Source: Mobula hypostoma (Eukaryota). From it: 64,000 nucleotides of DNA. The stretch is taken from NCBI RefSeq assembly GCF_963921235.1, contig NC_086108.1:63366001-63430000 (forward strand), in the 5' to 3' direction. Under the pieces are notes generated by a model that was given only the letters and a program-made list of their open reading frames with translations, was not told the origin of the DNA and made no database searches. The first letter of the stretch is position 1; each line of letters begins with the position of its first letter. Of this stretch, positions 12,213 to 58,140 are shown in pieces. Made by a program: the position numbers and the translations under genes.

Positions 12213-12421
12213 GTAATGTACAGCATCGAGGAAATTTGTTGAGAAATGTAACTGTGCTTGTACTGCTGCCACAAGACAGCAAATTTCACATTATGTGTCA
12301 GTGGTAATAAATCTGTTTCGTTTTCCAAAAGTATTTAGTAGTTATAAGATAATTGCAATAAAAATGGTGACAAGGTTGCAAATCTGTCAACACCTGTTAA
12401 GAATATACCATTTTATTTAAA

Positions 12422-12987: not shown

Positions 12988-13031
12988 GACCTATGTGAAT
13001 GGGAATTTTATTTTGTGAAACACATACTTAG

Positions 13032-13957: not shown

Positions 13958-14120
13958 TTTGCAGAGAAGTATGGAGATATTTTTAGCCTGAGGATTGGAT
14001 ATTCTTACCTTGTTGTCATAAATGGTTTAAATGCTTTTAAAGAGGCTGTGGTTCACCAGACAGATGTTTTTGCAGGAACAGCAGCATTTCCAGTTTTTGA
14101 TGATATTGTCAAGGGACACG
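13958..14120 (+). CDS. cyp2j: CYP2 exon 2 (163 nt)
   Basis: ttttacag|FAEKYGDIFSLRIGYSYLVVINGLNAFKEAVVHQTDVFAGTAAFPVFDDIVKGH(G)|gtaagt. Confidence 0.93.
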
Positions 14121-15558: not shown

Positions 15559-18500
15559 AATCTTGAAAATCGATCGAGAAGACAAAACTTACGTATAATT
15601 GGTCTACCCGAGGATGTTGAGGATGGAGACCCTTTAATATTCTTTGCTCAACGTTTAAAGGATACGTTCAGTTCAGTTTTTCCCAACGAGCATCCATTAC
15701 TTAACCGTGCGCACCGTATACCGCGGCCAAAGTCAGCATCGGCTGTATCCAAACCGAGACCAATTATTCTTCATTTCCATTATGTTAATGTTAAAGAACA
15801 GCTTCTCCAGACTGCTCCTCGGCAAGGGATGATCAATTATCGCCAGCATTCCTTCAGGATAGTTCAAGATTACAGTCCCGAAGTGATGAAAGAGCGACTG
15901 ACTTTTAAACCTCTGATGTCGGAATGTTATCAAAAGAATCTCAAACCGGCATTATTGTACCCTGCACGTCTAAGAATTTCTCTTCCTGATGGATCTCGTC
16001 GCGTCTTCCATTCCATAACCGCCGCTCGAAGCTTTTTGGAAGATAACTACCCATCTGATACGGACACCGCCCTTTAACTAATGTTCTGTGCTCTCAATAT
16101 CAGCTTCTTTTTCTCGTGTTTTTTTTTTAAATAAACCACCTTCTACCGTACGATGAAGGATTTTAATAAGCTCAAGATTTTTGTTTTGTGCTTACTACTG
16201 TAGTTAGCACTTTACAACTTATATAAAATAGTTATTTCTTGTGAATAACGTTACTTTCTTTTTAGTTAATTTTTCCTTAACTTTTTGTTTTCCGATATTA
16301 TTACTAACGATTTGATCTGACGATCATTTTCAGTTATATGTTCTTTATTTTTGTTTTTGTACAATTAAAGTGGCGATTTGTTTTTCTTTTTGCATAATCT
16401 CCTTTGTTCTTTTTGGGACGCCATGTTCTTATGTTTCTTCTTCCCATAATCCCCTTTCTTTGGAAGCAATATTTTACTTACTCTCACTTATAATTAACTA
16501 ATCATACATATTGATACTAACATTTTCTTAATTATCTTAGTAGTTATACTATGTAGATTATTATAGTATAGTGTTTAATTTTTTTTTATATATCAGTTTC
16601 CGGGGGGTCATCTATATAACATATATCTTTGGAGTTGCCTCCTGCAGAAATGGGGTTAGATTCAGTATTAGTTAGTTCTTTCTTCAGCCTTTACTGGCTT
16701 AGTTCGGGGTTCTTGGAGATGGAGGGTGGGGTAGTCTTTTTCTTTTTTAATTTTTTCTATTGGCCTGATTTAGTACTACAAAGATGTCTGCTGTGTCGGG
16801 ATTTCTGGTTCCTCTCTGATCATGTATTCCTCTTCCGATTTCATGAACTCACATTATGGTTAATCCTTTACTCACCAAAGGGTTAATCTTAAATTATGGC
16901 TCACATTATTAATTTTGTCTCTTGGAATACAAATGGTTTAAACCATCCAAAAAAATGGAAAAAGATTTTCAAAGTATTCCAAAGACTGAATGCTCATATT
17001 ATTTTTGCACAAGAAACTCATGTAAGGAAAGCGGATAATCAACGCTTCTTTAAGTTCTGGAAAGAATAATACCACTCAAACTCCCAAGCCAAAGTTAAAG
17101 GTGTTTCAATTTTTATAGATCCCTCAATTACATTTATTCATCAAGACATTATCTCAGATCCTAATGGTAGATTTTTGTTAATCACTGGGTTACTTTTCAA
17201 TAAAAAGGTTGCTATGTTTAATGTTTATGCTCTGAATGTGGATTACCCTGAATGTTTTAAACACATATTCACTTCCTTTCCTAACTTAAACGAGTATATG
17301 TTGATAATGGGCGGTGACTTTAATTTATGTTTGAATCCCATGTTGGACAGATCCATAGGTAGTCCGGCTTTACTGAATAAGTCGGCTACTTTTATTAACT
17401 CTTTTATGTTTGATTCTGGGATTTCAGAAATTTGGAGATTTCTACACCCAAAGGATAAAGAATTTTCATTCTTTTCACATGTTCATCGTTCTTATTCTCG
17501 AATTGACTATTTTTTTATTGACTCTCGATTAATCCCATATGTAATTGATTGTAATTATGACATTATCGCCATTTCAGATCATGCTCCAATGAAACTTTCT
17601 ATCAAGTTAATGGATACTTCTTGTACTAATAGACAATGGCGATGTAACCCTATTTTGCTTCAAGACTTGGACTTTGTCAAGTTTATAAAGGGACAGATTG
17701 ATTTCTTTTTTTCAATTAATACTACGGAAGAAGTTTCCAATGAAACAGTTTGGGACGCTTTTAAAGCTTATATCCGTGGTCAGATTATTTCCTATTCGGC
17801 TGGTTTGAAAAAACGTGCTAAGAATGAAATACTCTTGTTGGTTGATAAAATTAAAGAAATTGATAAAAAAAATATGCTATTTCTCCCAGTAGCTGTACAA
17901 ACACAGAGTTGAACTTCAATTGGAACATAGCTTACTATTAACATCCTCGATTGAAAATCAATTAATGAGAACTAAAAGTGATTTTTATATTCAGAGTGAT
18001 AAATCGGGTAAATTATTGGCTAATCAATTGAAATTTGCTTCGGTTAAAAGTGAAATTACTAAGATTCGCAAACTCGATGATACTTTGGCATTTGATCATG
18101 ACAGGATAAACAAAACCTTTCAAGAATTTTATACCTCTTTATATCACACTAATTTTCCTCATGATTTTAATACCATGCATGATTTTTTAAGTAAACTGAA
18201 TTTTCCGAAATTATCACCCGAAGATTGCTTATCATTAGAAACTCCTGTTACAGAGGAAGAAATAATAACTGCAATCTCATCATTGAATTCTGGTAAAGCT
18301 CCCGGTCCGGACGGGTTTACAGTGGAATTTTTAAAATCCTTTTCCTCTATTCTCTCTCCGTGGTTGTCTAGAATATTCGAAGAAGCAATCAGTTTAGGTA
18401 AATTACCACAATCGTTTTATGAAGCCTCTATTTCCTTAATTATTAAAAAGAACAAAGATCCTACTGATTGTGCATCATACAGAACAATATCTCTTTTGAA

Positions 18501-21100
18501 TGTAGATTCAAAAATTTTTTCAAAAATTTTAGCAACTAGGTTAGAGAAGGTATTACCTCAAATTGTATCTATGGACCAAACTGGATTTATTAAAAATCGT
18601 TATTCATCCTTTAATATTAGGAGGTTAATGAATATTGTTTACACTCCTTCACTTATTACCCCAGAATGTATTATCTCATGAGATGCTGAGAAAGCCTTTG
18701 ACAGAGTTGAATGGCCTTATTTATTTAGTGTGCTTGAGAAATTTAATTTTAGTTTGATATTTATATCTTGGATTAAATTGTTATATTATTCCCCGGTAGC
18801 TTCGGTTTGTACTAATAATCAAAGATCTCCCTTTTTTCGTCTATTTCGTGGTACTAGGCAAGGATGCCCTCTTAGTCCTTTACTATTTAATATCGCCCTT
18901 GAACCTTTAGCAATTGCTATCCGTGACTCGCCCAATATTTTTGGTATTACCCATGGAAACAAAATACATAAATTATCACTATATGCAGATGATTTGTTAT
19001 TATATATCTCTAATCCGGAGAAGTCAATTCCTGCTATTCTAGCTTTGTTGGCTCAATTTAGTAATTTTTCTGGCTACAAATTAAATCTTAATAAGAGTGA
19101 ATTATTTCCCCTAAATAAGCAGGTACCTATTTATGGATGTTTACCATTTAAATTGGTTACTGACTCATTTATATATTTAGGGGTTATAATCACAAAAAAG
19201 TATAAAGATTTATTTAAAGCTAATTTTTTTACCTTTAATTGATCAGATTAAACTTTTGTTTACTATATGGTCACCAATATCTTTGTCTTTGATAGGTCGG
19301 ATTAATGCTATTAAGATGATTATTTTGCCTAAATTTCTATATCTCTTTCAATCGGTTCCAATTTTTATCCCAAAATCTTTTTTTGATAATGTTGATTTAA
19401 TAATTTCCTCATATATATGGCAGAACAAAGGTCCTAGGCTAGGTAAAAGGTATTTACAGAAATCTAAAAAAGAGCGGGGGCTCGCCCTCCTGAAGTTTAG
19501 ATTTTATTAATGAGCAATTAATATTCGATTCTTAAAATTTTGGTTACGAGATTTGGATGTATCTTTAAATCCACATTGGGTAAATCTTGAATGTAATTCA
19601 TTACAAGGGTTTTCTTTGGGTTCGGTTTTAGGAACTTCGCTTCCTTTTATTTCTTCTAAATTGTATAAACAAATGAATAATCCAATAGTTAAGCATGCTT
19701 TATGTATATGGTTTCAATTCCGAAGATTTTTTGGGTTTAATCAATTTATTTTAGCAAGTACTATTATATCTAATTTCCCTTTTCAACCTTCCACTACGGA
19801 TCAAGCTTGCTTTGATTGGAAAACCAAAGGTATAGTACGTTTTTGTGATTTATTTTTGGATATTTGTTTCATGTCTTTTGATCAACTTTCTAATAAATAT
19901 AATTTACCCAGATCTCACTTTTTTAGATACCTACAGATTAGAAACTTTTTAATTACAGCTTCTCCTAATTTTCCACACTCATATCCAATGGCTACTTTGG
20001 AAAAAATTTTAGATCTAAGTCTCTCTCAGAAAAGTGTTGTAGCAATTATTTATAACATAATTATGAATTTATGTCCTGATGTTTCCAATAAAATTAAAAC
20101 TGATTGGGAAAGAGAATTTAAGATTATTATGCCGATCGAAAAATGGGAAAAAATTCTTCAATTGGTTAATTCATCCTCTATATGTGCTAAACATGTGTTG
20201 ATACAGTTTAAAGCAGTGCACAGGGCTCATATGTCTAAAGATAAACTATCTCGTTATTATTCTTATATTAATCCTATATGTGATAGATGTCATTCCGAGA
20301 TAGCTTCTTTAACTCACATGTTTTGGTCATGTCCTTTGTTGGAAAAATATTGGAAAGATATTTTTGATATTATTTCAATGGTTTTGAATACAGACTTACA
20401 ACCTCACCCAATTACTGCTATTTTTGGATTACCAATGATAGACTCAAATCATTTAACCTCTTCAGCTCGTTGGATGATTGCATTTCATACTTTAATGGCT
20501 AGAAGATCCTTTTTGCTGAATGGGAAAGAGATTAACCCTCCTACTGTATTTCACTGGTGTTCACAGACTATGTTGTTTTTAACTTTGGGAAAAAATTAGA
20601 AGTGTGGTTTATGACCCTTCCATTAAATTTGAAAAAAGCTTGGAGGCCATTTATTCAACATTTTCATATGATGTAATTTGACCATTTCCAAACTTATTTT
20701 ACTTCTCTGTAGTGTTGGTTGAGAGGAATGGAGTCGTCGACACTAAGGTTTTCTTTTCTTCCATTTTTACGTTGTTAAAATTGTCCAAGTCTTTTTCGTT
20801 TAGTTGACTAATTCTGTTTAGATTAGTTGTTTTTAATTAGTTGATTAGTTGTTTTAAATTAGTTTGTTTTTTTAAAAATTTTTTTTTCTTTTTCATGATT
20901 TTTCTCCAGTTATTTTTTTTTGTCCTGTATTATTCATTGTTGCCCTACATGATTGGGAGTTTTGTCAATTTATACTATTTGGTTTTATAATTGCTTATCT
21001 TAAGTATAACAATGTATTTCCAACAATTTTGTATTATTGCTATGTTATGTTTATATTTTATGAAACTAATAAAAAGATTGAAAAAGAAAGAAAGAAAGAA
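15559..21100 (+). mobile_element. L1-clade LINE, 5'-truncated within ORF1; ORF2 (ATG 16896) disrupted by stops and frameshifts
   Basis: ORF1 remnant ENRSRRQNLRIIGLPE...LLYPARL; ORF2 motifs SWNTNGL, QETH, GGDFN, SRIDY, ISDH, KAPGPDG, RQGCPLSP, LYADD, CDRC...HMFWSC; AATAAA at 21068, (GAAA)n tail; TSD agaaataa at 15551-15558 and 21097-21104. Confidence 0.95.
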
Positions 21101-21772
21101 ATAAGATGTTCACCCATTTATGACGGGCAAAGTTTTCTCTATTAGAGTCATGAGTGTGTGGACATCTTTTTCTCAAAGCAGAGTGAAAGCAGGATCATTG
21201 AATGAACAGACACCCGATGAGTAATGGAATAGAAGGGAATACCATATTGAAGCTTTAATCAGCACAGCATTGATCTTAATGAATATGAAGAGTGGACGAG
21301 AGGCAGGGTGGCCTTCTGGTTTTAATTCATTTTGAATGGTAACACAGGTGTTAAGATTGAACTTCACCAGCTTCTATGTCTCATGTTTGTTTGCTTTTTG
21401 TGCTGTTGTCACCAATGGTGTGAATGGGAATATATGCACTAGCATTGAGGGAATACTTTCACCCACTAATCTTACTGTTCCTCAGGGATTCCAGCTTCAT
21501 GGCAGCTGGCCTGTAGATTCTGAGAGGCTATTAGCACCAATTGTAATTCTGGTCTGAGGAGAAGTCCAGTGAGCTGGCCCACTTTTCACACTTACAGTAT
21601 ATGATCAAAGAACCTGTACTCCTACATAATCTAGACATATCAGTCAATGTAATTCTAAAACGAGTCATTGTTCTTAACAACAGATGCATTGTCAAATCTT
21701 CACAATGTCAACTGAATCACCATCACTCGTCTCTAAAACAAACAAGTTTATCCCATCAGTTCATACTTCTTT

Positions 21773-23380
21773 ATAAAATATAGGAGCAGAATTAGCTGCA
21801 TCAAGTCTGCTCCACATTCAACCATAGATGATTTATTATTCCTTCACAATCCCATTCTTTTACCTTCTCCCCATAACCTGTGATATCCTTACTAACTGCG
21901 TACCTATCAACCTCCTCTTCAATGACGTGGACTTCACAGCCATCTGTGGCAATGAATTCCATAGATGCACCACTCTCTTGCTAAAGAAATTACTTCTCAT
22001 CACTGCTCAAAAGAGATGTCCTTCTGTACTGCCCTCTCTTTGTAAACTCTTCCACAATTGGAAAAATCCCTGCCACGTCCACTCTATCTAGGCCTTTGAA
22101 TACTCAGTGAGATTCCCCCTTCATTCTTCTAAACTCCAGTGAGTACAGGCCCAGAACCATTAAATGCTCCTCATACAATAGCCCTTTCATTCCTGGGATT
22201 ATTCCCATCAACCTCCTCTGAGCTCTCTCCAATGCCAACATATCCTTTCAAAATATGCAGTCTAAAACTGCTCAAAGTACTCCAAGTGCAGTCTGATCAA
22301 TGCCTCGTAAGGCCTCAGTGTTACACTTCTTCCTTATATTCTAGTCCTCTAGAAATGAATACTAACATTTTATTTGCCTTCCTTACTGCTGATTCTATCT
22401 GCATTTTAACCTTCAGGGATTTCACAGAATCACCACTCTCTGGTTAAAAACAGTTCCTCCTCATCTCCATTCTAAAAAGACACCAGTCTGTTCTGAGGCT
22501 GTGTCCTTTGGTCTTAGACTCTCCCACCACAGGAAACATCCTCTCCACATCCACTCTATCAAGACCATTCACTATTTGATAGGTTTCAATGAGGCCACCC
22601 CTCATTCTTCTGAATTCTGATGAATACAGCCCCAGAGCCATCAAATGCTCTTCATATGACAAGCCATTCAATCCTGGAATCATTTTTGTGAACCTCTTTT
22701 GAACCCTCTCCAGTTTAAAGATAAAGGGCCGAAAACTGATCACAATACTCCAAGGGAGTCCCCACCAGTGCTTTTTAAGCCTCAACATTATATCCTTGCT
22801 TTTATATTCTTTATTTCCTCTTGAAATGAATTCTATCATCACATTCGCCTTCCTCACCACAAACTCAACCTGCAACTTAACCTTTGGGAATCCTACACAA
22901 GAACTCCAAAGTCCTTTTGCACCTCAGGTTTTTATATTTTCTCTCTATTTAAAAAATAGTCTACCCATTTACTTCTTCCACCAAAGTACACGACACAAAC
23001 TTCACAACATTGTATTTCATCTGCCACTTCTTCGCCCATTCTTCGCCCATTCTTCTAATCTGTCCAAGTTCTTCTGTAGCCTCTCTGTTTCCTGAAAACT
23101 ACTTGCCCCCCCCACCTATGTTTGTATTGTCTGAAAACTTTGCAACAAAGCTATCAATCCCATCATCCAAATCATTGGCATATCATCCAAACCATATGCA
23201 TGCAAAGTAATGGACCCAACACCTACACCTGTGGAACACTGTAAGTCATTGGAAATCAACCTGAAAAGGCTTCCTTTTTTCCCGGTCTTTGTCTTCTGCC
23301 AGTCAGCCGATCTTATGTCCGTAGTTCTACCTTTCCTGTCATACCATGTGGTCTCGGCTTAATTAGCAACTTCATATTGG
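21773..23380 (-). mobile_element. Degenerate CR1 3' region with an internally repeated segment
   Basis: ORF 22444-22875 LERVQKRFTKMIPG...RRMRGGLIETY; about 21965-22420 resembles about 22430-22890. Confidence 0.8.
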
Positions 23381-23862
23381 GCCCTTTTTCATTGGTTTGA
23401 TAACTGTTTTAGTGAACACCTATGTTTGCCTGAGGAATCCTCTATGAATGGCATCTACCCTCTATGATGGTAGAGCATGGCATGTGCCAGCGGGTAAGGT
23501 TTAAAATGCTTTAGGATATTTTTTGGCATGATTTTTTGTGTCCTAAAGACAACGTCGTATACAGACGTTTGGTTCCAATGGTGGCAGACACTGTTTGTGT
23601 TGATCTCAGAGATGAGCTTAACAATGAATGAGTTTTGAAGCCAACAATTAGTTGTCACCAGGAAAATCAGAACAGAGCCAAGAAAACACAGCGCTCAGCT
23701 GGGTTATTTATAATCAAATATAAGATATCTTTACCCACTAGGTTGTTGGGAAGGTTTACTATCCATATCAATTTCTTTACAAGGAATTCTCTTATTTTTC
23801 CATCCAGGCTACATAGACCACTCATAAATCATTACAAATGCCACCTGTATTTCACTGCACAG

Positions 23863-24012
23863 GTATACATTTCTCAGATGGAAACGTATGGAAAGAGCAA
23901 CGGAAGTTTGCACGAATGACATTAAGAAGGTTTGGTGTTGGGCAAAAGTCTTTGGAAACTCAAATTCTTGAGAAAATTAAAGATCTTCAAGATGCATTCA
24001 AACGAGAGAAGG
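23863..24012 (+). CDS. cyp2j: CYP2 exon 3 (150 nt, helix C WxxxR)
   Basis: ctgcacag|(G)IHFSDGNVWKEQRKFARMTLRRFGVGQKSLETQILEKIKDLQDAFKREK(G)|gtaagt. Confidence 0.94.
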
Positions 24013-25600
24013 GTAAGTTCATTCTACATTTTGTTTTGGATATAATGCCATTGGACTGGATTTTGTGTAATGATGCAAAATTATTTGTTGATATCAGTGG
24101 TAAAAACAGACAGCAATTTCTATAAGATATGTGTTGCCATTTAAATGTTGCATTCCTGTAGACTTGTAAGCTCTTCAAATAAACATCCGTTTACTATGCA
24201 AAACTGATGAGCATTTCCACCCTAACAAAAGTGTCAGGCAGTGCATTGCAGATTCCTATTACTCTCTGGTTAAATAAATTTTCCTCATATCCCCTCTATT
24301 CATTTTACCTTTGAATTTAAATCCATGCTCATTTTTGACTCTAGTACTACATGAAATATATCCTTGTTATTTAGTCTATCTGAGTTTGCAATTTCAGACA
24401 ACTCAGTAAATTGTCCCAAACGGAAGAGCAGGAGCATAATAATTTTGCTCATAGGTGCATATTCCAGCTTTATTAACTCCTTCATGGGTTACCAGATATC
24501 CTCTCGAATGGATACTTTTTGTAGTTAATACTGGTGTGATGGAAAACACCCAGCACAGATCACTATGTTTTTAAGGGCAGCAAATATTGATATAACTTTT
24601 TGGTTGCAGACCAACTTCTTAATATTAAACACACAGCATATATTTTCCTCGCCTGAATATAGTGATGTCAATTATAAGTCACTTAGAAGTCAATAGCATC
24701 GTAACATTTTAAGTAACCAAAATCCCAGCTAATGTTGGGAACAAGTCAAATATGCCCCTGTTCACTTGCCGTCCCCACAGTTCCAGTTGGGCTTTGAAAG
24801 CAGACACTTTATCTACCAACTTGAAGACAGTTGTCATTCTCCCCTGAAGTGACAAATTGGGTTCAATGAGCAGGTTGGAGATGTCACACAGATAAGCGAG
24901 TTTTGCTATTCACTCCTCATCACTGAAGTGTGTTGCCAGTGGTGACTTTTTTCCTGAAAGAAATCTCTGCAGCTGCTCTCTTAATTCAAAAACCCTGGCC
25001 AGGACTCTTCCCCTTGATAGCCACCTGACCTTAGTGTGTAAGAGAAGGTGTTTGTGCTCTGCATCCATTTCCTCGCAAAGCTGCTCAAACAGACGTGAGT
25101 TAAGGGCTTTTGATTTGATGTGATTAATAACTTCAACAACGTCACTCAATATGCTGTGAAGATCAGGTGACATTTTTCGGCTAGCCAGCATTTCCCTGTG
25201 TATGACACAGTGTGTAGACTGGCATTCAGAAGCAACCTCTGTGACTTGGGTAGTGAAACCAGACAGCCGTCCAGTCATAGCTTCAGCCCGTCTGTGCATA
25301 TTCCAACACAGAATGACCAGCCCAGTTTGCCTGACATGTAGTCATTCAAAGATTTGAATTGCTCTGCCCCAGTTGTGTTAGTTGGCAGCCGCAGTGCACA
25401 CAACATATCCTTGTGCATATTGCCTTGAAATATATATCGCACATAAACCAGCAGTATTGCCTTGTTGTCGACATCGGTAGACTCGTCAAACTGGATAGCA
25501 TACCATGGTGACAGTTCCAACAGTTGTGCTTTGATGTCCTCTGCTACGTCCTCGATTCTCAATGAAACTTTGGTAGCTGAAATAGAAACTTGTGCCATCT

Positions 25601-27261
25601 AATTCCGCCTAGCGGAATTAGTCCTTACTCTTAATAATTTCACCTTTGGCTCCTCCCACTTCCTCCAAACTAAATGTGTAGCCATTGGCACCCGTATGTG
25701 TCCCAGCTATGCCTGCCTTCTTGTTGGCTTTGTGGAACAATCTATGTTCCAAACCTATTCTGGTATCTGTCCCCCACTTTTCCTTCGCTACATCGATGAC
25801 TGCATTGGCGCTGCTTCCTACACGCATGCTGAGCTCATTGACTTCATTAACTTTGCCTCCAACTTTCACCCTGCCCTCAAGTTTACCTGGTCCATTTCTG
25901 ACACCTCCCTCCCCTTTCTTAATCTTTCTGTCTCTCTCTCTGGAGACAGCTTATTTTCTGATGTCTACTATAAGCCTATGGACTCTCACAGCTATCTGGA
26001 CTATCCCTCTTCTCACCCTGTCTCTTGCAAAAGTGCCATCCCCTTCTCGCAATTCCTCCGTCTCTGCTGCATCTGCTCTCAGAATGAGGCTTTTCATTCC
26101 AGGACGAGGGAGATGTCTTCCTTTTTTAAAGAAAGGGGCTACCCTTCCTCCACCATCAACTCTGCTCTCAAACACATCTCCCCCATTTCACGTACATCTG
26201 CTCTCACTCTACCCCACTAGGAATAGGGTTCCCCTGGTCCTCACCTACCACTCCACCAGCCTCCGGGTTCAACATATTATTCTCCGTAACTTCGACCGCC
26301 TCCAACAGGATCCCACCACTAAGCACATCTTTCCCACCCCCCCCACCTCCTTTCTGCAGGAATCGCTCCCTACGCGACTCCCTTGTCCATTCGTCCCACC
26401 CATCCCTCCCCACTGATCTCGCTCCTGGCACTTATCCTTGTAAGAAGAACAAGTGCTACATGTGCCCTTACACTTCCTCCCTTACCACCATTCAGGGCCC
26501 CAGACAGTCCTTCCAGGTGAGGCGACACTTCACCTGTGAGTTGGTTGGGGTGATATACTGTGTCCAGTGCTCCCGATGCGGCCTTCTATATAGTGGTGAG
26601 ACCCGATGCAGACTGGGAGATCATTTCGCTGAACACCTACGCTCTGTCTGCCAGAGAAAGCAGGATCTCCCAGTGGCCACACATTTTAATTCCACGTCCC
26701 ATTCCCATTCTGATATGTTTATCCTTGGAATCCTCTACTGTAAAGATGAAGCCACACTCAGGTTGGAGGAACAACACCTTGTATTCCGTCTGCGTATCCT
26801 GCAACCTGATGGCATGAACATCGACTTCTCAAACTTCTGCTAATGCCCCACCTCCCCCTCGTACCCCATCCATTATTTATTTATTCTTTTTCTCTCTCTC
26901 CTTTTTCTCCCTCTGTCCCTCTCACTATACCCCTTGCCCATCCTCTGGGCTTCCAGCCCTCCCCCTTTTCTTCCTCCCTAGGCCTCCTGTCCCATGATCC
27001 TCTCATATCCCTTTTGTCAATCAACTGTCCAGCTCTTGGCTCCATCCCTCCCCCTCCTGTCTTCTCCTATCATTTTGGATCTCCCCCTCCCCTTCCCACT
27101 TTCAAATCTCTTACTAGCTGTTCTTTCAGTTAGTCCTGACGAAGGGCCTGGGCCCGAAACGTCGACTGTACCTCTTCCTAGATATGCTGCCTGGCCTGCT
27201 GCGTTCACCAGCAACTTTTATGTGTGTTGCTTGAAATTCCAGCATCTGCAGGTCTCCTCGT
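25601..27261 (+). mobile_element. Penelope-like retroelement (RT + Cys-rich linker + GIY-YIG endonuclease), 5'-truncated and frameshifted
   Basis: GTRMCPSYA, FLRYIDD, VYYKPMDSHSYL, PCKKNKCYMC, VIYCVQCSRCGLLYSGET, RLEEQHLVFRL; flanked by a 13-bp TSD with one mismatch. Confidence 0.92.
27132..27167 (+). ncRNA. Minimal type I hammerhead ribozyme motif in the PLE terminal region; predicted cleavage after C27163
   Basis: AGUC-CUGACGA-A-GGGC(CUGG)GCCC-GAAAC-GUC-GACU: stem I AGUC/GACU, complete core, stem II, loopless palindromic ACGU stem III. Confidence 0.8.
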
Positions 27262-28661
27262 ACCTGTGCCATCTTGTTAGCTGCAGCTTCTCCCAACAGT
27301 TCACGGCACATGTCCTTGGCAGCAGGCAGAATCAGTTCTTCACCAACAGTGAAAGGCTTCTTAGCCTTAGCAATACGACTAGCCACTCAGTACGACGCTC
27401 TCAGAGCAGCAGCATTTGCGGAGGTGGTGACTCTCAGCACTTGCTTCTGTCCCGCTTGCTCACATTTTTTTCTGCTCAAAAGACTCATCGGGTTTGTCTT
27501 TAAGTGCAGGTGCTTGGACTCAAGGAGCCGAAGCAGTTTTGAGGGCTTCCTTGCCTCATTAAACAGCTTGTCTCCACATATCACACACGGGGTGCTTGCG
27601 AGTCACCGGTCACATTAAAGCCATATTTTATGTACGACTTGTCGTATTTTCTGTTGGAGGAAGTTTTCTTTTTTTTTTTGCAGTCACGGCCTCAGCTGCC
27701 TCTGTGTTATCATCATCGTTAGGCCACTTTCCCATACCTCCTCTTCCAAAGATAATCTCAAGCGACGTTTGTTTTTAATGACCGACCGATAACCTCACGG
27801 GGATAATGACCTCGCATGTGTTCAAGTTCAACAGTGAACGTAACAGGGAATGAGGAAAGGTGCAGCTGACTCATATCATTTCATACCGCCAAATCAAATC
27901 CTTTCCTCATGGCCCGGTAGCTCATGCTTTGCGGCCCGGTGATTGGGGACCACTGATTTATGGAGTCTGAGATCCAGATACCAGGAATCAATTTATTTAT
28001 ATAATTTAGCAACTAAAAGTTCCTAGCTGATTTTCTGGGGCCTTCCTCACTCACAACTCTTCACTGCTTTGTTATTTTCAATCTCCTATCAACACTTCAT
28101 ACTTCGTTAAAGATTTTAATATATGCCCTGTTAATGCAGATAAACTCTCAAATTGAAAAGTGAAGCAATAATCTGAACTATAATCTCGACATCAAAACAA
28201 ATAATTTCGAAACATTCAGCAGTTTTCAGGTTGGGAGAAAGAAACAGCTAATGCTTGAAGACCTTTAGTCAGCAAATAGAAATCCGGTCCTTGACCTCAA
28301 TTATTAACTGTGATTTCTTTTCACTGCCAGATTTCCTGAGTACTTCAGCAATATCTGCTTTTGTTTCAGTTTTCGGGAATCTGCAGTTTTTTATTAGTAG
28401 TGTGATCACTCAAGTAAAGTATGATGATCTGTAAAAGTTCCCTTTTGGTGGATCTTCAGGTGGCTGTCAGAGGACTGTGGTTCAGTCTGAAACGTCGACT
28501 GTCCATTTCCCTCCATAGATGCTGCTTGACCCACTGAGTTCACCAAGATTTTTTTTTGGGTTGCTTCTGCTACAGAACTCCAGTGTCTTAACTTACAAAA
28601 CAGCTCACTTGCTGTGAACATGTGACAACTTTGTATGGATTCAGGATTGGCAATTCCTCCT

Positions 28662-31600
28662 CCATAGAAACCATAGAAACTACAGGACAGAAACAGGCCT
28701 TTTGGCCCTTCTTGGCTGTGCTGAACCATTTTCTGCCTCGTCCCACTGACCTGCACACAGACCATATCCCTCCATACACCTCCCATCCATGTAGCTGTTC
28801 AATTTATTCTTAAATGTTAAAAAAGAACCCACATTTACCAACTCGTCTGGCAGCTCATTCCATACTCCCACCACCCTCTGTGTGAAGAAGCCCCCCCTTA
28901 TGTTCTCTTTAAACTTTTCCCCCCTCACCTTTAACCCATGTCCTCTGGTTTTTATCTCCCCTTGCCTCAGTGGAAAAAGCCTGCTTGCGTTCACTCTATC
29001 TATACCCATCATAATTTTATATACCTCTATCAAATCTCCCCTCATTCTTCTACACTCCAGGGAATAAAGTCCTAACCTATTCAACCTTTCTCTGTAACTG
29101 AGTTTCTCAAGTCCTGGCAACATCCTTGTAAACCTTCTCTGCACTCTTTCAACCTTATTTCTATCCTTCCTGTAATTTGGTGACCAAAACTGAACACAAT
29201 ACTCCAGATTCGACCTCACCAATGCCTTATACAACCTCAACATAACATTCCAGCTCTTCTACTCAATACTTTGATTAATAAAGACCAATGTACCAAAAGC
29301 TCTCTTTACAACCCTATCTACCTGTGACGCTATTTTTAGGGAATTTTGTATCTGTATTCCCAGATCCCTCTGTTCCACTGCACTCCTCAGTGCCTTACCA
29401 TTAACCCTATATGTTCTACCTTAGTTTGTCCTTCCAACGTGCAATACCTCACACTTGTCTGTACTAAACTCCATCTGCCATTTTTCAGCCCATTTTTCCA
29501 GCTGGTCCAAGTCCCTCTGCAGGCTCTGAAAACCTTCCTCACTGTCTACTACACCTCCAATCTTTGTATCATCAGCAAATTTGCTGATCCAATTTACCAC
29601 ATTATCATCCAGATCATTGATATAGATGACAAATAACAATGAACCCAGCACTGATCCCTGTGGCACACCACTAGTCACAGGCCTCCACTCGGAGAAGCAA
29701 TTCTCTACTACCACTCTTTGGCTTCTTCCATTGAGCCAATGTCTAATCCAATTTACCACCTCTCCATGTATACCTAGCGACTGAATTTTCCTAACTAACC
29801 TCCCATGCGGGACCTTGTCAAAGGCCTTACTGAAGTCCATGTAGACAATATCCACTGCCTTATCTTCATCCACTTTCCTGGTAACCTCCTCGAAAAACTC
29901 CAATAGGGTGGTCAAACATGACCTGCCACGCACAAAGCCATGTTGACTCTCCCTAATAAGTCCCTGTCTATCCAAATGCTTGTAGTTTCTGTCTCTTAGT
30001 ACTCCCTTCAATAACTTACCTACTACTGACGTTAAACTTACTGGTCTATAATTTCCCAGATTACTTTTCGATCCTTTTTTAAACAACGGAACAACATGAG
30101 CCACTCTCCAATCCTCCGGCACCTCACCTGCAGACAGCGACTTTTTAAATATTTCTGCCAGGGCCCCTGCAATTTCAACACTAGTCTCCTTCAAGGTCCG
30201 AGGGAATACCCTGTCAGGTCCTGGGGATTTATCCACTTTAATTTTCCTCAAGACAGCAAGGACCTCCTCCTTTTCGATCTGTACAGTTTCCATGATCTTA
30301 CTACTTGTTTCCCTTAATTCCATAGACTTCATGCCAGTTTCCTTAGTAAATACAGACACAAAAAACCTATTTAAGATCTCCCCCAATTGCTTTGGTTCCG
30401 CACATAGCCGACCACTCTGATCTTCAAGAGGACCAATTTTATCCCTTACAATCCTTTTGCTCTTAATATACCTGTAAAAGCTCTTTGGACTATCCTTCAC
30501 TTTGACTGCCAAAGCAACCTCATGTCTTCTTTTAGCCCTCCTGATTTCTTTCTTAAATGTTTTCTTGCACTTCTTATACTCCTCAAGCACTTATTTACTC
30601 TCTGCTTCCTATGCATGTCATACAACTCCCTCTTCTTCTTTATCAGAGTTGTAATATCCCTTGAGAACCAAGGTTCCTTATTCCTATTCACTTTGCCTTT
30701 AATCCTGACAGGAACATACAAATTCTGCACTCACAAAATTTCTCCTTTGAAGCCTTCCCACCTACCGATCACATCTTTGCCAGAAAACAACCTGTCCCAT
30801 TCCACACTTTTTAGATCCTTTCGCATTTCTTCAAATTTGGCCTTTTTCCAGTTCAGAACCTCAACCCTTGGACCAGATCTATCCTTGTCCGTGATCAAGT
30901 TGAAATTAATGGTGTTATGATCACTGGAACCAAAGTGCTCCCCTACACAGACTTCTGTCACTTGTCCTAACTCGTTTCCTAACAGGAGATCCAATATTGC
31001 ATCCCCTCTAGTTGGTCCCTCTATATATTGATTTAGAAAACTTTCCTGAACACATTTTACAAACTCTAAACCATCCAGACCCCTAACAGTATGGGAGTCC
31101 CAATCAATATATGGAAAATTAAAATCCCCTACCACCACAACTTTATGATTCCTGCAGTTGCCTGCTATCTCTCTGCAGATTTGCTTTTCCAATTCTCGTT
31201 GACTATAGGGTGGTCTGTAATACAATCCCACTAATGTGGCCATACCTTTCCTGTTTCTCAGATCCACCCATAAGGACTCAGTAGACAAGCCCTCTAATGT
31301 GTCCTGCCTGAGCACTGCTTTAATATTTTCCCTAACAAGCAATGCTACTCCCCCACCTTTCATTCCTCTGCCTCGATTACATCTGAAACATCGGAACTCT
31401 GGAATATTAAGCTGCCAGTCCTGCCCCTCCTGTAGCCAAGTTTCAATAATTGCTATAACGTCATAATTCCACGTGTCAATCCACGCCCTCAACTCATCCG
31501 CCTTCCCCGCAATACTCCCAGATTGAAATAGATACACCTCAGAAGCTTTTTACCACCACTCACAACCTTTCTATTAGTGGATTTGCTTGAACTTTTAACA

Positions 31601-32810
31601 TCATTTATTTTCACCCCAGCCACACTGTCAGCTCTGGCACTCTGGTTCCCATCCCCCTGCAAATCTAGTTTAAAGCCTCCCCAGTAGTACCAACAAACCT
31701 CCCTGAAATGATATTGGTCCCCCTGTAGTTCAAGTGTAACCTGTCTCTCTTGTACAGGTCCCACCTGCCCCAGAAGAGGTCCCAATGATCCTGAAATCTG
31801 AAACCCTGCCCCCTACAGCAGTTCCTCAGCCATTTGTTCATCTTCCAGAGCATCCTATTCCTACCCTCACTGGCACGTAGCACAGGTAGCAATCCTGAGA
31901 TTACCACCCTCGAGGTCCTGCTTTTCAACTTCCTACCAAGTTCTCTATACGCACTCTCCAGGACCTCCTCACTCTTCCTTGCTATGTCATTGGTACTGAT
32001 GTGCACCACGACATCTGGCTGATCACCTTCCCACTTCAGAATGTCATGCAAGCGATCAGAGACATCCTTGACCCTGGCACCCGGGAGGCAACAAACCATC
32101 CTGGATTCTCTGTCACGACCACAGAACCTCCTATCTGTACCTCTAACTATCGAGTCCCCTTTCACTACCGCTCTCCTCTTTTTCCACCCTCCCTTCTGCA
32201 CTGCAGAGCCAGACTCAGTGCCAGAGATCCGGCTACTGCAGCTTGTTCCAAGTAAGTCATCCCCCCCAACAGTATCCAATGCGGTATACTTGTTGTTGAG
32301 GGGAATGACCACAGGGAAACCCTGCTCTGCCTGCCCTTTCCTCTTCCCTCGTCTGACAGTGACCCAATTTCCTGTCCTCTGCTCCTTTGGCGTAACTACC
32401 TCCCTGTAGCTACGATCTATAATCTCCTCATTCTCCCGAATGATCCGCAGGTCATCCAGCTCCTGCTCCAGTTCCCTAACGCAGTTTGTTGGGCGCTGCA
32501 GCTGGAAGCACTTCTTGCGGGGCTCGTTGTCAGGGACACCGGAGGGCTCCCTGACTTCCCACATCCTGCAAGAGGAGCATTCCAACATCCTGCCTGGCAT
32601 TCTCTCTACTCTAAACAATCTGAACAAAAAACTTACCGAAACCTACCCTGGTCTCCGCCTGTTCTCGCCGAAGCCTGTTGAGCCAAAGCTGTCCCACTTT
32701 GACTCAGTCCACTCCGATGATGGCCGCTGTATATGGTGGTCTGCTTTTAAACCTTGGCGTGCTACGTCATGCGCCAGCGCAGTGCAGACCCTTCTCCCCG
32801 AGCAGTGTTT
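28662..32810 (-). mobile_element. Near full-length CR1 LINE, family B; ORF1 intact, ORF2 broken
   Basis: ORF1 at 31665-32627; ORF2 pieces 30731-31537, 29421-30590, 28680-29243 with ETW, GDFN, SSDH, VPQGSVLG, KFADD; (TTTCTATGG)n tail at 28662. Confidence 0.95.
31665..32627 (-). CDS. CR1 ORF1 protein: Cys-rich N-terminus, coiled coil, SGNH/GDSL-type esterase domain
   Basis: CSSC, VRELEQELDDL, GDSIVRG, CCLPGARV, VVHISTND, DRLHLN in a 320-aa open frame. Confidence 0.8.
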   Translation of the reverse strand: MFRLFRVERMPGRMLECSSCRMWEVREPSGVPDNEPRKKCFQLQRPTNCVRELEQELDDLRIIRENEEIIDRSYREVVTPKEQRTGNWVTVRRGKRKGQAEQGFPVVIPLNNKYTALDTVGGDDLLGTSCSSRISGTESGSAVQKGGWKKRRAVVKGDSIVRGTDRRFCGRDRESRMVCCLPGARVKDVSDRLHDILKWEGDQPDVVVHISTNDIARKSEEVLESAYRELGRKLKSRTSRVVISGLLPVLRASEGRNRMLWKMNKWLRNCCRGQGFRFQDHWDLFWGRWDLYKRDRLHLNYRGTNIISGRFVGTTGEALN

Positions 32811-33399
32811 TAAAAAAAAAAGACTTTTTCTACCCAATTTTTTTTCAGTGAAAGAAAAATCATTTGACGGGTAAATGACACAGAAAGCATGTGTCTGGAG
32901 CATGGTTAAAGCAAAAAAAAAACCTAATAACCTTTAGAACCTTTGGTAGCAACATGACACGGAACACTAGGAACGACCTTGCCAGTATTAATCAGAATAA
33001 ACCACAGCAGATCCCCATAGTAAGAAGAATTATATTCAGCAACATGAAGAATGTGCACTGAGTAGTTGTTGCTGCCATCGGGTGTCTACTTGAGTGATGT
33101 CTGAATCACAAACAATTTTAAAGAATGAAGTTTCTTGTTCAAACAGTGGATGGGGGAAAAATCAGTGGAATCAGCAGCAATCTACACATCTGTGCAGCAT
33201 TAGAAGTTTACTTACATCTGTTTTTGATCTTTCAAGTGGTAGTTGCTGCGTGTTCAGAAAGCAAGCTTACAAAACATAAGATCTCCTGCCCAGGACAATG
33301 AATATCCATCCAGCATATAAATATTTTTAAAATATTTTGGAAAAGGCATAAAACTTCTCTGAGGGGCTGCTTTGTTCAGGTTCTGATGTCACTGTTTCA

Positions 33400-35050
33400 G
33401 TGGTGTTTTTCCAGGGAAACCCCTCCCCCTTCCCCATCCCTATTCTCAGAATCTGGAAGCAAAAACTGAAAGCCTCAGAGCAAGAATGCAGTGCCAGCGG
33501 GACATCAGGAGCTGTTCTGCACTCTGGATCAGAGACATGGCTCACCCTCAGCATTTCGGACAGAGCACTCCAACCTCAGGGCTTCACCTTCCACCACATG
33601 GAATGGACAGCAGATTCAGGCAAATGCAGAGGTGGTGGTATTTGCTTCATGATTAAAGTATCATATTGCACAGGGATGGCATTTCTGCCTCATTCCTGCT
33701 CCCCTGACCTGGAACACGCAGCTGTCAAACATCATCCATTCCATCAGCCAAAGGAGTTCTTTCACCATCATCTTGATTTCTGTGTACATTCCACCACTAT
33801 CAAACATAAAGATAACACAGGAGGAGCTAAGCACCATTATTAGAAGTCACAGATAGTGCACCCCGATGCCTTCCTGTTGTTCGTTTCTTAATCCGTCAGG
33901 GGATCAAAGGATATGGCACGAAGGCAGGTGAATGGGATTGAGTGGGATCTGGAATCAGTCATGAATGATCATGGGCTCAACGGTCTGAATGGCTTAATTC
34001 TGCTCCTGTGTCTTATGGTTTTAAATTACAGCCTCAGTATTAATAAACGAACTTCAAAACCTTGGCCTCCATATGTCCCTCTGCAATATGATCCTTGACT
34101 TCCTCTTCAGGAGAGCACATTTAGTGCAAATCAGTATTAACCACTTCCTCCTCGCTGACCATTAACACTGGCACACCTCAGGAATGCATGCCTAGCTTGC
34201 TGTTCTACTCTCAGCACATTCATGATTGTCTAGCTGGGCACATCTATAAATTTGCCGATGTTGTTGGTAGAATCTCTGGTGGTGACAAGGAGGCATACAG
34301 GAGTGAGACAGATTGGTTCATTGAGTGATGTCACAGCAACCTTGCACTCAATGTCAGCTAGATCGAGGAACAGATTGTGGACATCAGGAAGGGGAACTTA
34401 GGAGAGCACACACCAGTCCTCATTGAGGGGTCAACAGTGGAAAGGGTGAACAGCTTTAAGGTCTTAGGTGTCAACATCCCGGAGGATTTACCTTGGCACT
34501 AACTCATTGATGCAATGATGAAGAAGGCACACTGTCAGCTATACTTCGTTAGGAGTTTGAGGAGATTTAGTATGTCACCAAAGACTCTAGTGAATTTCTA
34601 CAGATATAACACGGAGAGCATTCTGACTAGTTTCATCACAGCCTATTTCCAGAATTCAAAGAAGCTGTCGAGGGTCGTGGACTTAGCTAACTCCATCATA
34701 GGCACAACCCAGATATCTTCAACACTCACAACCCAGATATCTTCAACAGGGGGGCCCTCAAGAAGGTAGCATCTGTCACTGAGGATATCGGGGACAAGTC
34801 TTCTTCTCATTACTATCTTTAGGGAGAAGGTCCAAGAGCCTGAAGAACCACACTTAATGTTTTAGGAACAGTTTCTTCCCCTCTGCCATCAGATTTCTCA
34901 ATTGTCTATGAAAACTGCATCATTATTCTTCTTTTATTCTATATATTTATGTAATATCATAGCTTATAATAATTTTATGTCTTGCGCTGTACTGCTGCAT
35001 CAAAACAACAAGTATCATGACATATCAATAATTATAAGCCAGATTCTGAT
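33400..35050 (+). mobile_element. Highly degenerate L2/Rex1-type LINE with a CR1 3' tail at about 33880-34025
   Basis: SETWLT and RGGGICF endonuclease remnants; YKFAD; KKAHCQLYFVRSLRRF, ESILTSFITA. Confidence 0.7.
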
Positions 35051-35235
35051 CCTTCCCTTGATTTTAGCTTGCTGTTTCTGTCCTTGTGGTCCACGTTGCC
35101 AGTGCAATCAAAGTGACATTCTACCCATCTCCATTATGCTTGAAAACTATCCTGTTTCCCTGTGAATTCGTGAAGCAAAGATTCTGGCTAACTATCACTT
35201 CCACTGCAATTTAAGTTATGGAAGAGCTTCCAGAA

Positions 35236-35792
35236 AGCAAGTAGCTATATAGGACCCTGGTCAGACCCCACTTAGAGTACTGTGCTCAGTTCTGGTCTCC
35301 TCACTACAGGAATGTGGAAACTATAGAAAGGGTGCAGAGGAGATTTACAAAGATGTTGCCTGGATTGGGGAGCATGTCCTATGAGAATAGGTCGAGTGAA
35401 CTTGGCCTCTTCTCCTTGGAGCGACGGAGGATGAGAGGTGACCTGATAGAGGTATATAAGATGATGAGAGGCATTGATCATGTGGACAGTCAGAGGCTTT
35501 TCCCAGGGCTGAAATGGCTAACATGAAAGGGCACAGTCTTAAGGTGCTTGGAAGTAGATACAGAGAAGATATCAGGGGTAAGTTTTTACACAGAGAGTGG
35601 TGAGTGCGTGGAATGGGCTGCCAGCGACGGTGGTGGATAGGGTCTTTTAAGAGACTCCTGGATAGGTACATGGAGCTTAGAAAAATGGAGTGCTGTGGGT
35701 AACCCTAGGTAATTTCCAAAGTAAGTACATGTTGGGCACAGCGTTGTGGGCTGAAGGGCCTGTACTGTGCTGTAGGTTTTCTATGTTTTCTA
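35236..35792 (+). mobile_element. CR1 3'-end fragment
   Basis: LYRTLVRPHLEYCAQFWSP, ERVQRRFTKMLPG; ttctatgttttcta tail. Confidence 0.85.
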
Positions 35793-36488
35793 TACTCAAC
35801 AGGTTGGGTAATGTCTGTGGAGAATTTGATAATTGGTTTAGTATTCTCAAGTGCACTGAAATACAGTGAAAGAATTCTGTTTGTGTGCCACCCTGGCAGA
35901 TCATGCCAGACATGCTGAAAGTACAATGAGACAGTAAAGAAAAAGCAGAATGCAGAATATAGTGTCTTCAGAGCAGGTGCACTGTCAGAAAATTAAATGA
36001 AAGGTCCTGGGGTAGATTGGGAAAATGTTAATGATTCAGAATTGGACAGGACAAAGTTGAGCAGAAATCTAAGGATGAGAACCATAAATATGAGGCATTG
36101 GTAACAGGAAGCCAATCAAAATTTTATCAGGATTTAGTGAGAAGTAGGAAATTGGAAATAGGGCTGTGTATGGATGAAAGAGTATGAGGTTGCCCGAGAA
36201 ATGTAGGATATTCTAGCTAAATGTTATGAAGAACTGCATATATTGCTACCTCCAACATGTCCTAAATCCACCTGTTGGAGCATGCAGGAACAACTGGTTC
36301 TTACTGTTTTTGAAGACTGCCTGAATCAAGTAAATATCCTAGTTATTCAACTTTAATTATTAGTTAGCTTTGAACATAAATTGCAAAGTATGTAAACCAT
36401 ATTTAAAAAGTATGTACGACATTCGTACATTGATAAATGAATAGGCTATTGAGAATAACTTTTAATATTCAACGTGTTCTGCTTTCAG

Positions 36489-36655
36489 GACAACCATTCA
36501 ATCCTCAAACCAAGATACATACATCAATTTTAAACGTAATTTGTTCAATTGTTTTCGGAGAACAGTATGACTGTGATGGTACCCATGCTGATATACAAGA
36601 ATTCCGTCTTATACTTGACAAAGTTGCAAAATTTTTGACGAATATTTGGGTTCAG
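36489..36655 (+). CDS. cyp2j: CYP2 exon 4 (167 nt)
   Basis: ctttcag|(G)QPFNPQTKIHTSILNVICSIVFGEQYDCDGTHADIQEFRLILDKVAKFLTNIWVQ|gtatgg. Confidence 0.92.
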
Positions 36656-37029
36656 GTATGGTTATATTTGGGAGTAATATTTTTAAATATTGAATTTTGG
36701 AAAAGGAAAAATATTTGACTGAAATTAAAATCTTTTAATTTGAAAAGAGTGTACGCTACCATCACTAATCAGGCACAATCTACAGAAATTCATGAAATAC
36801 ATTTATGTTAACAATTTATAAGTCTAATTTCAAACTCTATTTTCAAATTGTAGTGCAGGATGATAAACTTATGGTATGCGTGCCCAAGATGGCACATGCA
36901 AAATTTTTGTTAGCATGTGACATTCAGTGCCATTCCTCTATCCTTTAAACCCCACCCATTATAAAAAGATACATAATGATTATCTTTACTGCCAAATGAA
37001 GTAGCAAATTATTTTTTACAACCAAAGAG

Positions 37030-40000
37030 AAACCATAGAAACACTACAGAACAGAAACAGGCCTTTTGGCCCTTCTTGGCTGTGCCGAACCATTTTCTGC
37101 CTAGTCCCACTGACCTGCACACGGACCATATCCCTCCATACACCTCCCATCCATGTATCTGTCCAATTTATTCTTAAATGTTAAAAAAGAACCCACACTT
37201 ACCACCTCGTCTGTCAGCTCATTCCATACTCCCACCACTCTCTGTGTGAAGAAGCCCCCCCAATGTTCCCTTTAAACTTTTCCCCCCTCACCATTAACCC
37301 ATGTCCTCTGGTTTTCCTTCTCCCCTTGCCTCAGTGGACAAAGCCTGCTTGCATTCACTCTATCTATACCCATCATAATTTTATATACCTCTATCAAATC
37401 TCCCCTCATTCTTCTATGCTCCAGGGGATAAAGTCCTAACCCATTCAACCTTTCTCTGTAACTGAGTTTCTCAAGTCCCGGCAACATCCTTGTAAACCTT
37501 CTCTGCACTCTTTCAACTTTATTAATATTCTTCCTGTAATTTGGTGACCAAAACTGAACACAATATTCCAGATTCGGCCTCACCAATGCCTTATACAACC
37601 TCATCATAACATTCCAGCTCTTGTACTCAAAACATTGATTAATAAAGGCCAATCTACCAAGAGCTCTCTTTACGACCCTATCTACCTGTGACGCCACTTT
37701 TTGGGAATTTTGTATCTGTATTCCCAGAGCCCTCTGTTCTACTGCACTCCTCAGTGCCTTACCATTTACCCTGTATGTTCTAGCTTGGTTTGTCTTTCCA
37801 AAGTGCAATGCCTCACACTTGTCTGTATTAAACTCAATCTGCCATTTTTCAGCCCATTTTTCCAGCTGGTCCAAGTCCCTCTGCAGGCTCTGAAAACCTT
37901 CCTCACTGTCCACTACACCTCCAATATTTGTATCATCAGCAAATTTGCTGATCTAATTTACCACATTATCATCCAGATCATTGATATAGATGACAAATAA
38001 CAATGGACGCAGCACTGATCCCTGTGACACACCACTAGGCACAGGCCTCCACTCAGAGAAGCAATTCTCTACTACCACTCTTTGGCTTCTTCCATTGAGT
38101 CAATGTCTAATCCAATTTATCACCTCTCCATGTACACCTAGCGACTGAATTTTCCTAACTAACCTCCCATGCAGGACCTTGTCAAAGACCTTACTGAAGT
38201 CCATGTAGACAACATCCACTGCCTTCCCTTCATCCAATTTCTGGGTAACCTCCTCAAAAAACTCAATAGATTGGTCAAACATGATCTACCACACACAAAG
38301 CCATGTTGACTCTCCCTAATAAGTCCCTGTCTATCCAAATGCTTGTAGATTCTGTTTCTTAGTACTCCCTCCAATAACTTACCCACTACTGATGTCAAAC
38401 TTACCGGCCTATAATTTCCCAGATTACTTTTCGATCCTTTTTTAAACAACGGAAAAACATGAGCTACTCTCCAATCCTCCGGCACCTCACCCGTAGACAC
38501 CGACATTTTAAATATATCTGCCAGGGCCCCTGCGCTTTCAACACTAGTCTCCTTCAATGTCCGACGGAATACCCTGTCAGGTCCTGGGGATTTATCCATT
38601 TTAATTTGCCTCAAGATAGCAAGGACCTCCTCCTTTTCAATCTGTACAGTTTCCATGATCTCCCTACTTGTTTCCCTTAATTCCATAGACTTCATGCCAG
38701 TTTCCTTAGTAAATACAGATGCAAAAAACCCACTTAAGATCTCCCCCATTTCTTTTGGTTCCGCATATAGCCGACCACTCTGATCTTCAAGAGGACCAAT
38801 TTTATCCCTTACAATCCTTTTACTCTTAATATATCTGTAAAAGCACTTTGGATTATCCTTCACTTTGACTGCCAAGGCAACCCCATGTCTTCTTTTAGCC
38901 CTCCTGATTTCTTTCTTAAGTATTTTCTTGCACTTTTTATACTCCTCAAGCACCTTACTTACTCCCTGTTTCCTATACATGTCATACAACTCTCTTCTTC
39001 TTTATCAGAGTTGCAATATCCCTTGAGAACCAAGGTTCCTTATTCCTATTCACTTTGCCTTTAATGCTAACAGGAACATACAAGCTCTGCACTCTCAAAA
39101 TTTCTCCTTTGAAGGCTTCCCACTTACTGATCACATCCTTGCCAGAGAACAAGATCCTTCCTCATTTCTTCAAAGTTGTCCTTCTTCCAGTTCAGAACCT
39201 CAACCCTAGGACCAGATCTAACCTTGTCCATGATCAAGTTGAAACTAATGGTGTTATGATCACTGGAACCAAAGTGCTCCCCTACACACACTTCCGTCAC
39301 TTGTCCTAACTTGTTTCCGAACAGGAGATCCAACATTGCATCCCCTCTAGTTGGTACCCCTATATATTGATTTAGAAAACCTTCCTGAACACATTTTACA
39401 AACTCTAAACCATCTAGATCGCTAGAAGTATGGGAGTCCGAATTAATATATGGAAAATTAAAATCCCTTACCACCGCAACTTTATGTTTCCTGCAGTTGC
39501 CTGCTATCTCCCTGCAGATTTTCTCCTCCAATTCTCGCTGACTATTGGGTGGTCTATAATACAACCCCACGAATGTGGCCATACCTTTCCTGTTTCTCAG
39601 CTCCACCCGTAAGTACTCAGTAGACAAGCTCTCTAATCTGTCCTGCCTGAGCACTGCTGTAATATTTTCCCTAACAAGCAATGCTACCCCCCAACTTTCA
39701 TTCCTCTGCCTCTATCACATCTGAAACATCGGAACCCTGGAATATTAAAGCTGCCAGTCCTGCCCCTCCTGTAGCCAAGTTTCACTAATTGCTATAACGT
39801 CATAATTCCACGTGTCAATCCACGTCCTCAACTCGTCTACCTTCCCCGCAATACTCCAAGCATTGAAATAGATACACCTCAGAAGATTTTTACCACCACT
39901 CACAATCTTTCTATTTGCGGCTTTCCTTGAACTATTAACACCATTTATTTTCACCCCAGCCACACTGTCAGCTCTGGCACTCTGGTTCCCATTCCCCAGC

Positions 40001-58109: not shown

Positions 58110-58140
<31 letters not shown>

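Follow-up and report, generated by a model that had tools for sequence, protein, structure and literature searches.

Minimal type I hammerhead ribozymes of Penelope-like elements (PLEs) form a class that is already known (Cervera and de la Pena 2014). In the metazoan elements described in PMC4209133 they carry an extra nucleotide, the G10.1-C11.1 pair and a palindrome; the Schistosoma monomer was reported there not to cleave, while dimers and trimers cleaved weakly, and a review agrees that the monomer of the PLE minimal hammerhead is inactive and that its dimers are low in activity (PMC6765202). Cleavage by the anole Poseidon hammerhead was described only with the element's protein, insertion in vitro did not require the ribozyme, and the published account gives no RNA-seq reads ending at its site (PMC11167929). 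RECK-type amniote intronic hammerheads and the CPEB3 ribozyme are described as conserved across species and as standing apart from any element (PMC6155905, PMC10274809), and CPEB3 cleaves as a monomer in minutes (PMC10274809). Non-LTR retrozymes are non-coding tandem repeats, each with a hammerhead derived from PLEs; about 43% of the Xenopus copies are reported to lie in introns, one chondrichthyan genome contains them, and of nine Xenopus dimer elements one cleaved strongly in vitro and eight yielded no product (bioRxiv 10.64898/2026.07.22.740005).

The window analysed here is the whole 64-kb stretch of Mobula hypostoma DNA, in which an initial annotation had reported an intact minimal hammerhead in sense orientation within intron 3 of a cytochrome P450 (CYP) gene. 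The motif is very probably a minimal hammerhead in the terminal repeat (pLTR) of a dead, 5'-truncated PLE, likely silent, as suggested by analogy with described elements and by predicted folding, and what the locus adds to the known class is one more copy and a ray family of very high abundance. It has in common with the elements of PMC4209133 the type I topology without helix III, the palindromic 15.2-16.2 pairing, a short helix I, the extra nucleotide that separates positions 9 and 10.1, the G10.1-C11.1 pair, the place in the pLTR and an abundance of thousands per genome, for the most part solitary copies left by truncated elements. Helix II is shorter here (4 bp versus 7-8 bp in the Schistosoma families), and cartilaginous fish are not among the hosts named in the excerpted text of that article. 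A literature search for Penelope hammerheads in sharks found none, a result that does not show absence from print.

As in the RECK-type and CPEB3 cases (PMC6155905, PMC10274809), a ribozyme motif lies on the sense strand of a host intron; in contrast to them, the present motif lacks helix III, lies within a young repeat and is not conserved beyond background. A retrozyme identity was rejected, since a PLE-derived hammerhead is shared with those elements (bioRxiv 10.64898/2026.07.22.740005) but occurs here as a single intact copy on a coding PLE remnant. Stems I and II and loop II are common to the motif and to the Poseidon element PAc of Anolis (PMC11167929), and by analogy the same help would likely be needed. 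PAc belongs to another clade, Poseidon without the Zn linker, and its ORF starts inside stem II; according to the same source its dependence on protein was shown, whereas the ray copy is known from its sequence.

The element and its host gene

The host is an intact gene with GT/AG borders at all eight introns, whose joined exons gave 499 codons without a stop. The motifs PPGP, WxxxR, AGSET, EIQR and FSGGKRNCMG were present, and Pfam p450 was matched on two of the exons; the gene is probably CYP2-like, as judged by its motifs rather than by a tree. The features of the gene and of the element are as follows.

12009..63342, + strand: intact cytochrome P450 gene, 9 exons, 499 aa
12009-12212, 13958-14120, 23863-24012, + strand: P450 exons 1-3
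36489-36655, 42690-42866, 45425-45560, + strand: P450 exons 4-6
53348-53532, 61462-61603, 63167-63342, + strand: P450 exons 7-9
24013..36488, + strand: CYP intron 3, 12,476 nt
24900..25600, - strand: hAT-type (FAM200/ZBED5-like) transposase fossil left of the PLE (Atlas score 0.93, a lead)
25591..25600, + strand: target-site duplication, left copy (10 nt exact; 13 nt with one mismatch)
25601..27261, + strand: 5'-truncated PLE with one pLTR, showing sharp depth steps of sequencing-run contigs at both ends
25603..26217, + strand: C-terminal part of the PLE reverse transcriptase (RT) and thumb, with a YIDD motif, starting mid-RT
26222..26843, + strand: linker and GIY-YIG endonuclease, in two further frames
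27262..27800, - strand: hAT fossil right of the PLE (outer limit approximate)
27265..27274, + strand: target-site duplication, right copy

Of 1070 candidates, 360 matched the RT piece as homologues at E<=0.001; the nearest with a name came from rays (80-86% identity, with 84-86% for the best ray proteins), and a relative carrying Pfam RVT_1 and GIY-YIG (P0066) was 52% identical. Pfam gave no match on the RT piece of the window and a weak one for GIY-YIG (E 0.11), and a PDB sequence search with the RT piece returned 0 matches. A CX4CX2C linker was found near 26440-26470, between RT and endonuclease, and the GIY-YIG domain showed CX2C between the GIY and YIG boxes and HX5H, which together make a CCHH motif. 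A CX2-5CxxC linker and a CCHH motif are the described signature of Neptune/Nematis EN+ PLEs (Craig et al. 2021, PMC8557442), and the element is probably of this type, an assignment made by the signature and not by an RT tree. It has in common with the elements of that report the RT followed by a C-terminal GIY-YIG, the linker, the CCHH motif, the pLTR hammerhead and the inverted partial copies beside many family members, and it differs from them in being 5'-truncated and frameshifted.

An active PLE is recognised by a full ORF between two pLTRs, whereas this one starts mid-RT, carries two frameshifts (near 26217 and 26350) and has one pLTR, with none upstream. Its identity to other genomic copies was about 89-92%. 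The frame ends at a stop codon at 26841-26843, and the hammerhead lies 289 nt behind it, about 100 nt before the 3' end of the element. The RT piece, the GIY-YIG domain, the position behind the endonuclease stop and the stem covariation in related PLEs described below all support the earlier proposal of a PLE-borne minimal type I hammerhead.

Since the 10-nt duplication flanks the PLE and the hAT transposase frame continues across it, the hAT fossil was in the intron first and the truncated PLE then jumped into it. Pfam gave no match on the hAT fossil. The simplest view of one sequencing-run contig, which skips 25512-27262, is that it represents another hAT copy lacking the PLE. The contigs of four runs over 25300-27660 were dominated by paralogous repeats, with no listed piece bridging a junction, and as they were swamped in this way they are informative neither on RNA ends nor on orthologous insertion.

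The hammerhead motif and its family

The parse of the motif agreed with that first given and is listed below.

27132..27167, + strand: minimal type I hammerhead, by parse, descriptor match and alignment of related motifs
27132-27135, + strand: stem I, 5' strand
27136-27142, + strand: CUGACGA core
27143, + strand: extra A, between positions 9 and 10.1
27144-27155, + strand: stem II, 4 bp with a 4-nt loop
27156-27159, + strand: GAAA box
27159-27162, + strand: ACGU palindrome without a loop, running directly into C17
27163, + strand: C17
27164-27167, + strand: stem I, 3' strand

The core CUGAnGA, the GAAA box and the UH site were all present, helices I and II were pairable, and the 15.2-16.2 positions were palindromic with no helix III loop. 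Stem I has 4 bp and can be extended to 5 bp by a U.G pair, G10.1-C11.1 is present as G27144-C27155, and the scissile bond, placed by the parse, lies after 27163. The extra nucleotide between 9 and 10.1 and the location in the pLTR, on the strand of the ORF, are likewise those of PLE minimal hammerheads. An extra A at this place was correctly described as tolerated in the CChMVd hammerhead, where a moderate loss of rate is reported (PMC3705267).

A structural descriptor made of the core, both stems and the paired 15.2-16.2 positions gave exactly 1 match on both strands of the window, at 27132-27167, and 0 matches in all 200 dinucleotide shuffles, while the bare CTGANGA..GAAA pattern was not above chance (8 matches versus a mean of 6.7). 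An Rfam scan of the window at E<=10 gave 9 matches, none of them a hammerhead family, and the motif search proposed with the initial annotation was thus positive for the descriptor and negative for the Rfam models. A profile search recovered 12 hammerhead-family matches in the window (within the P450 gene, 5 sense and 4 antisense), and the description of 27132-27167 as the only fully intact copy holds within this stretch.

As copies within the source genome are about 90% identical, no two-sided change in stem I was found among 52 descriptor matches there, and this lack of covariation was rejected as a refutation of the structure because the copies are too alike. A set of 79 related PLE loci was therefore taken from metagenome contigs, as the best 80 of 538: the descriptor gave 23 matches in 19 of these 79 loci, 18 of the 23 on the ORF strand, against 0 matches in 20 shuffled sets; matching by sequence, with no pairing demanded, gave 37 motifs, 25 of which had both stems; and 17 distinct flank pairs from the same best-ranked loci held 39 Watson-Crick pairs out of 51, against a shuffled mean of 14.3 and with 39 reached in 0 of 10,000 shuffles. 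In a 15-sequence alignment, composed of 12 of the 23 descriptor matches picked for diversity and 3 copies from the source genome, so that pairing was partly built in, two-sided changes occurred in all four pairs of stem I, in three of the four pairs of stem II and in the 15.2-16.2 pair, and the core letters were invariant in all 15. Covariation of stems I and II in related elements of other organisms shows the hammerhead structure to be genuine at the level of the family, and the covariation that the initial annotation had named as decisive was found at that level. In one of the metagenome loci (L162), the - strand near 2030 carries, by a PLE remnant, a hammerhead of canonical type that lacks the extra nucleotide and has a palindromic helix III of 6 letters.

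Copies with an intact core are very abundant in the genome. A 34-letter pattern covering the whole core, three stem I pairs and the palindrome gave 58,985 exact matches (29,427 forward and 29,558 reverse; reversed control 0), compared with 4,000-9,000 copies given for coelacanth and Xenopus in PMC4209133, where the descriptors differ. A tighter 35-letter pattern gave 6,090 matches, and a pattern with stem II two letters longer gave 9, all insertion variants. G10.1-C11.1 was kept in 12,974 of the 58,985 core-intact copies (22%), and a G10.1.U11.1 wobble replaced this conserved pair in the other 46,011 (78%). Since the CpG at C7-G8 was kept in 93 of the first 100 copies among the matches listed, the wobble points to a subfamily that expanded with it rather than to CpG decay, and with 78% of copies carrying it the hammerhead of the most successful lineage may be a weakened one. 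In an older pLTR subfamily, present at 13380-13486 (+) of the window and at several arbitrary loci, A6 of the core is replaced by C (CUGCYGA); another has U17. The roughly 59,000 copies with their subfamily variants (G10.1.U11.1, A6C, U17) offer material for an in vivo cleavage test, and strand bias in introns would make a genome-wide test of minimal PLE hammerheads possible.

In 54 arbitrary 10-kb stretches (540 kb) the descriptor gave 14 matches, 12 of them palindromic, and a strict form of it (G10.1-C11.1, Watson-Crick palindrome, C17) gave 0 matches in the same 540 kb, where about 2 were expected. As the genome-wide counts predict 1.09 core-intact copies per 64 kb (0.24 with G-C) and, for the sense strand of a gene as long as the P450 gene, 0.44, a single intact sense copy here is no more than background. 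Against the family majority, the motif differed at 2 of 36 sites (5.6%) and the whole PLE at 89 of 1625 (5.5%); there is thus none of the conservation that marks a domesticated ribozyme and no sign of selection on this copy, a comparison of low power at 36 nt, and the chance that 15 core sites stay unchanged at the background rate is 0.43. With abundance and divergence both at background, the special meaning first attached to a single intact sense copy was lost. One of the two changes is a C-G pair in stem II where the family has U.G, common to 7 of 82 aligned copies, and with this pair and G10.1-C11.1 kept the copy is, as judged from its letters, among the better-looking ones. Divergence from the family was 2.4% and 3.2% in the non-coding 3' part and 6.4% in the ORF part, and the lower 3' values may come from subfamily mixing in the comparison set.

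Partners, predicted folding and the host transcript

As suggested by the literature, the tandem repeats of an active parent element would supply two half-ribozymes, joined by crossed stems I and by the pairing of their ACGU palindromes; the element's protein would likely help the dimer, and the element RNA would be cut out of a longer transcript. The position, the target duplication and the family show that the copy at 27132-27167 was brought in passively with the 3' end of its element. This orphan has no upstream repeat to pair with and has probably stayed intact for want of time, the insertion being young and its core still untouched by drift. In the predicted monomer fold G5-G8 pair with C15.2-C17 (P 0.99-1.0) and the open core has P 0.0009, which would lock the core into an inactive rod; when the native flanks are included, stem I reaches no more than P 0.02, its 5' strand being taken by an upstream hairpin. 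The active homodimer was predicted at -18.1 kcal/mol, versus -27.2 for two monomers and -42.8 for an inactive duplex, values from nearest-neighbour energies that omit Mg2+ and core tertiary contacts and so understate active folds.

Of 12 motifs that were folded, from distant PLEs, 11 likewise had the core paired with the palindrome and C17 (P 0.68 or more), at 27138-27163 of the window and at loci L091, L094, L098, L115, L119, L120, L138, L165, L002 and L006. Such pairing could be a built-in off state of monomers. The core-lock helix was rejected as a selected structure, its covariation score being reached by 157 of 500 shuffles.

Within intron 3 the cut site is 3,151 nt away from the 5' splice site and 9,326 nt away from the 3' one, and the substrate half at 27159-27167 is intact. 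The initial annotation had envisaged that a second copy, in cis or in trans, would cut after 27163 and so regulate the CYP transcript, and tens of thousands of sequence-compatible enzyme halves in the genome could in principle serve in trans. The P450 gene, however, holds no intact cis partner. The only same-strand candidate is a decayed pLTR copy of another subfamily:

28483..28501, + strand: decayed pLTR copy with core and stem II deleted and an intact substrate half (ACGUC and the 3' strand of stem I), potential cut after 28496

Each strand of a double hammerhead is cleaved by the other copy's core. The decayed copy has lost its own and cannot cut at 27163, so a cis dimer would cut after 28496 instead, and the proposed cis cut after 27163 falls; cutting there would need an intact copy in trans. 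Two identical copies are moreover predicted to prefer the inactive duplex, a bimolecular reaction would need to be over by the time intron 3 is spliced out, and the anole element shows no RNA-seq ends at its cut site in the published account (PMC11167929), so that this regulatory scheme is extremely unlikely. A cut after 28496 is also very unlikely, if somewhat better founded: the core at 27136-27162 would act on the core-less copy 1.33 kb downstream, mainly when PLE protein is present, and slightly less CYP mRNA would result. The + strand of the window holds a single enzyme half, at 27133, and substrate halves at 27159 and 28492 only, the two partners lie on one strand and are fully complementary over the ACGU helix and the two crossed stems I, each of 5 bp, and the predicted heterodimer is little above the separate folds (-15.7 versus -19.1 kcal/mol). 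Fast scission of an intron can lower splicing, as described for CPEB3 (PMC10274809). Yet the active form is not the lowest, the minimum free energy fold (-19.5 kcal/mol) having its core locked; CPEB3 acts on splicing over a similar distance of 9.9 kb with a half-life of 2-3 min (PMC10274809), whereas dimers of PLE minimal hammerheads are low in activity; and with about 200 family matches per Mb, chance alone should yield pairs of this kind.

A further reading takes the motif for a chance or degenerate hairpin of a family that has lost ribozyme function altogether. It would fit the Rfam result, the lack of two-sided stem I changes among the 52 matches of the source genome and the wobble in 78% of intact copies, but is hardly credible given a motif that none of the 200 shuffles produced, an invariant core with stems that covary across 15 aligned sequences from distant elements, and a position just where it is expected behind the endonuclease. 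The evidence thus favours a genuine minimal hammerhead, likely silent, in the terminal repeat of a dead PLE, and any host effect of it is improbable. If paired copies did cut host introns, a retroelement would have a route to change host gene output; nothing here points there. A highly improbable extension is that ray introns hold tens of thousands of locked half-ribozymes that gain paired activity when Penelope protein is made, the 27136 core and the core-less 28483 copy, cut after 28496, forming a split, protein-gated cis ribozyme from two independent insertions; were it true, a split ribozyme would couple transposon activity to host mRNA output.

Other repeats in the window

Another PLE of the type found in intron 3, more decayed, occupies 46148-48996 (+) in intron 6, with a pLTR copy at 48894 that has no GAAA box. 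Inverted pairs of pLTR ends forming long hairpins were observed at 8015-8213 of the window and at loci L038, L040, L041, L043, L055 and L083, matching described inverted PLE insertion structures, and a weak Rfam mir-3202 match (8088-8167) falls on the pair in the window.

Two 2.77-kb arms, 98% complementary, were located upstream of the CYP gene (3737-6503) and in intron 7 (54332-57098), and presumably contain LINE-like RT text. A stop-free frame of 361 codons at 19514-20596 (+), in intron 2, resembles what we take to be the C-terminal end of an L1/Tx1-type ORF2. Finally, two long copies of one repeat, at 28679-31821 and 37043-40161, are 91-95% identical, lie about 8.35 kb apart and flank exon 4.
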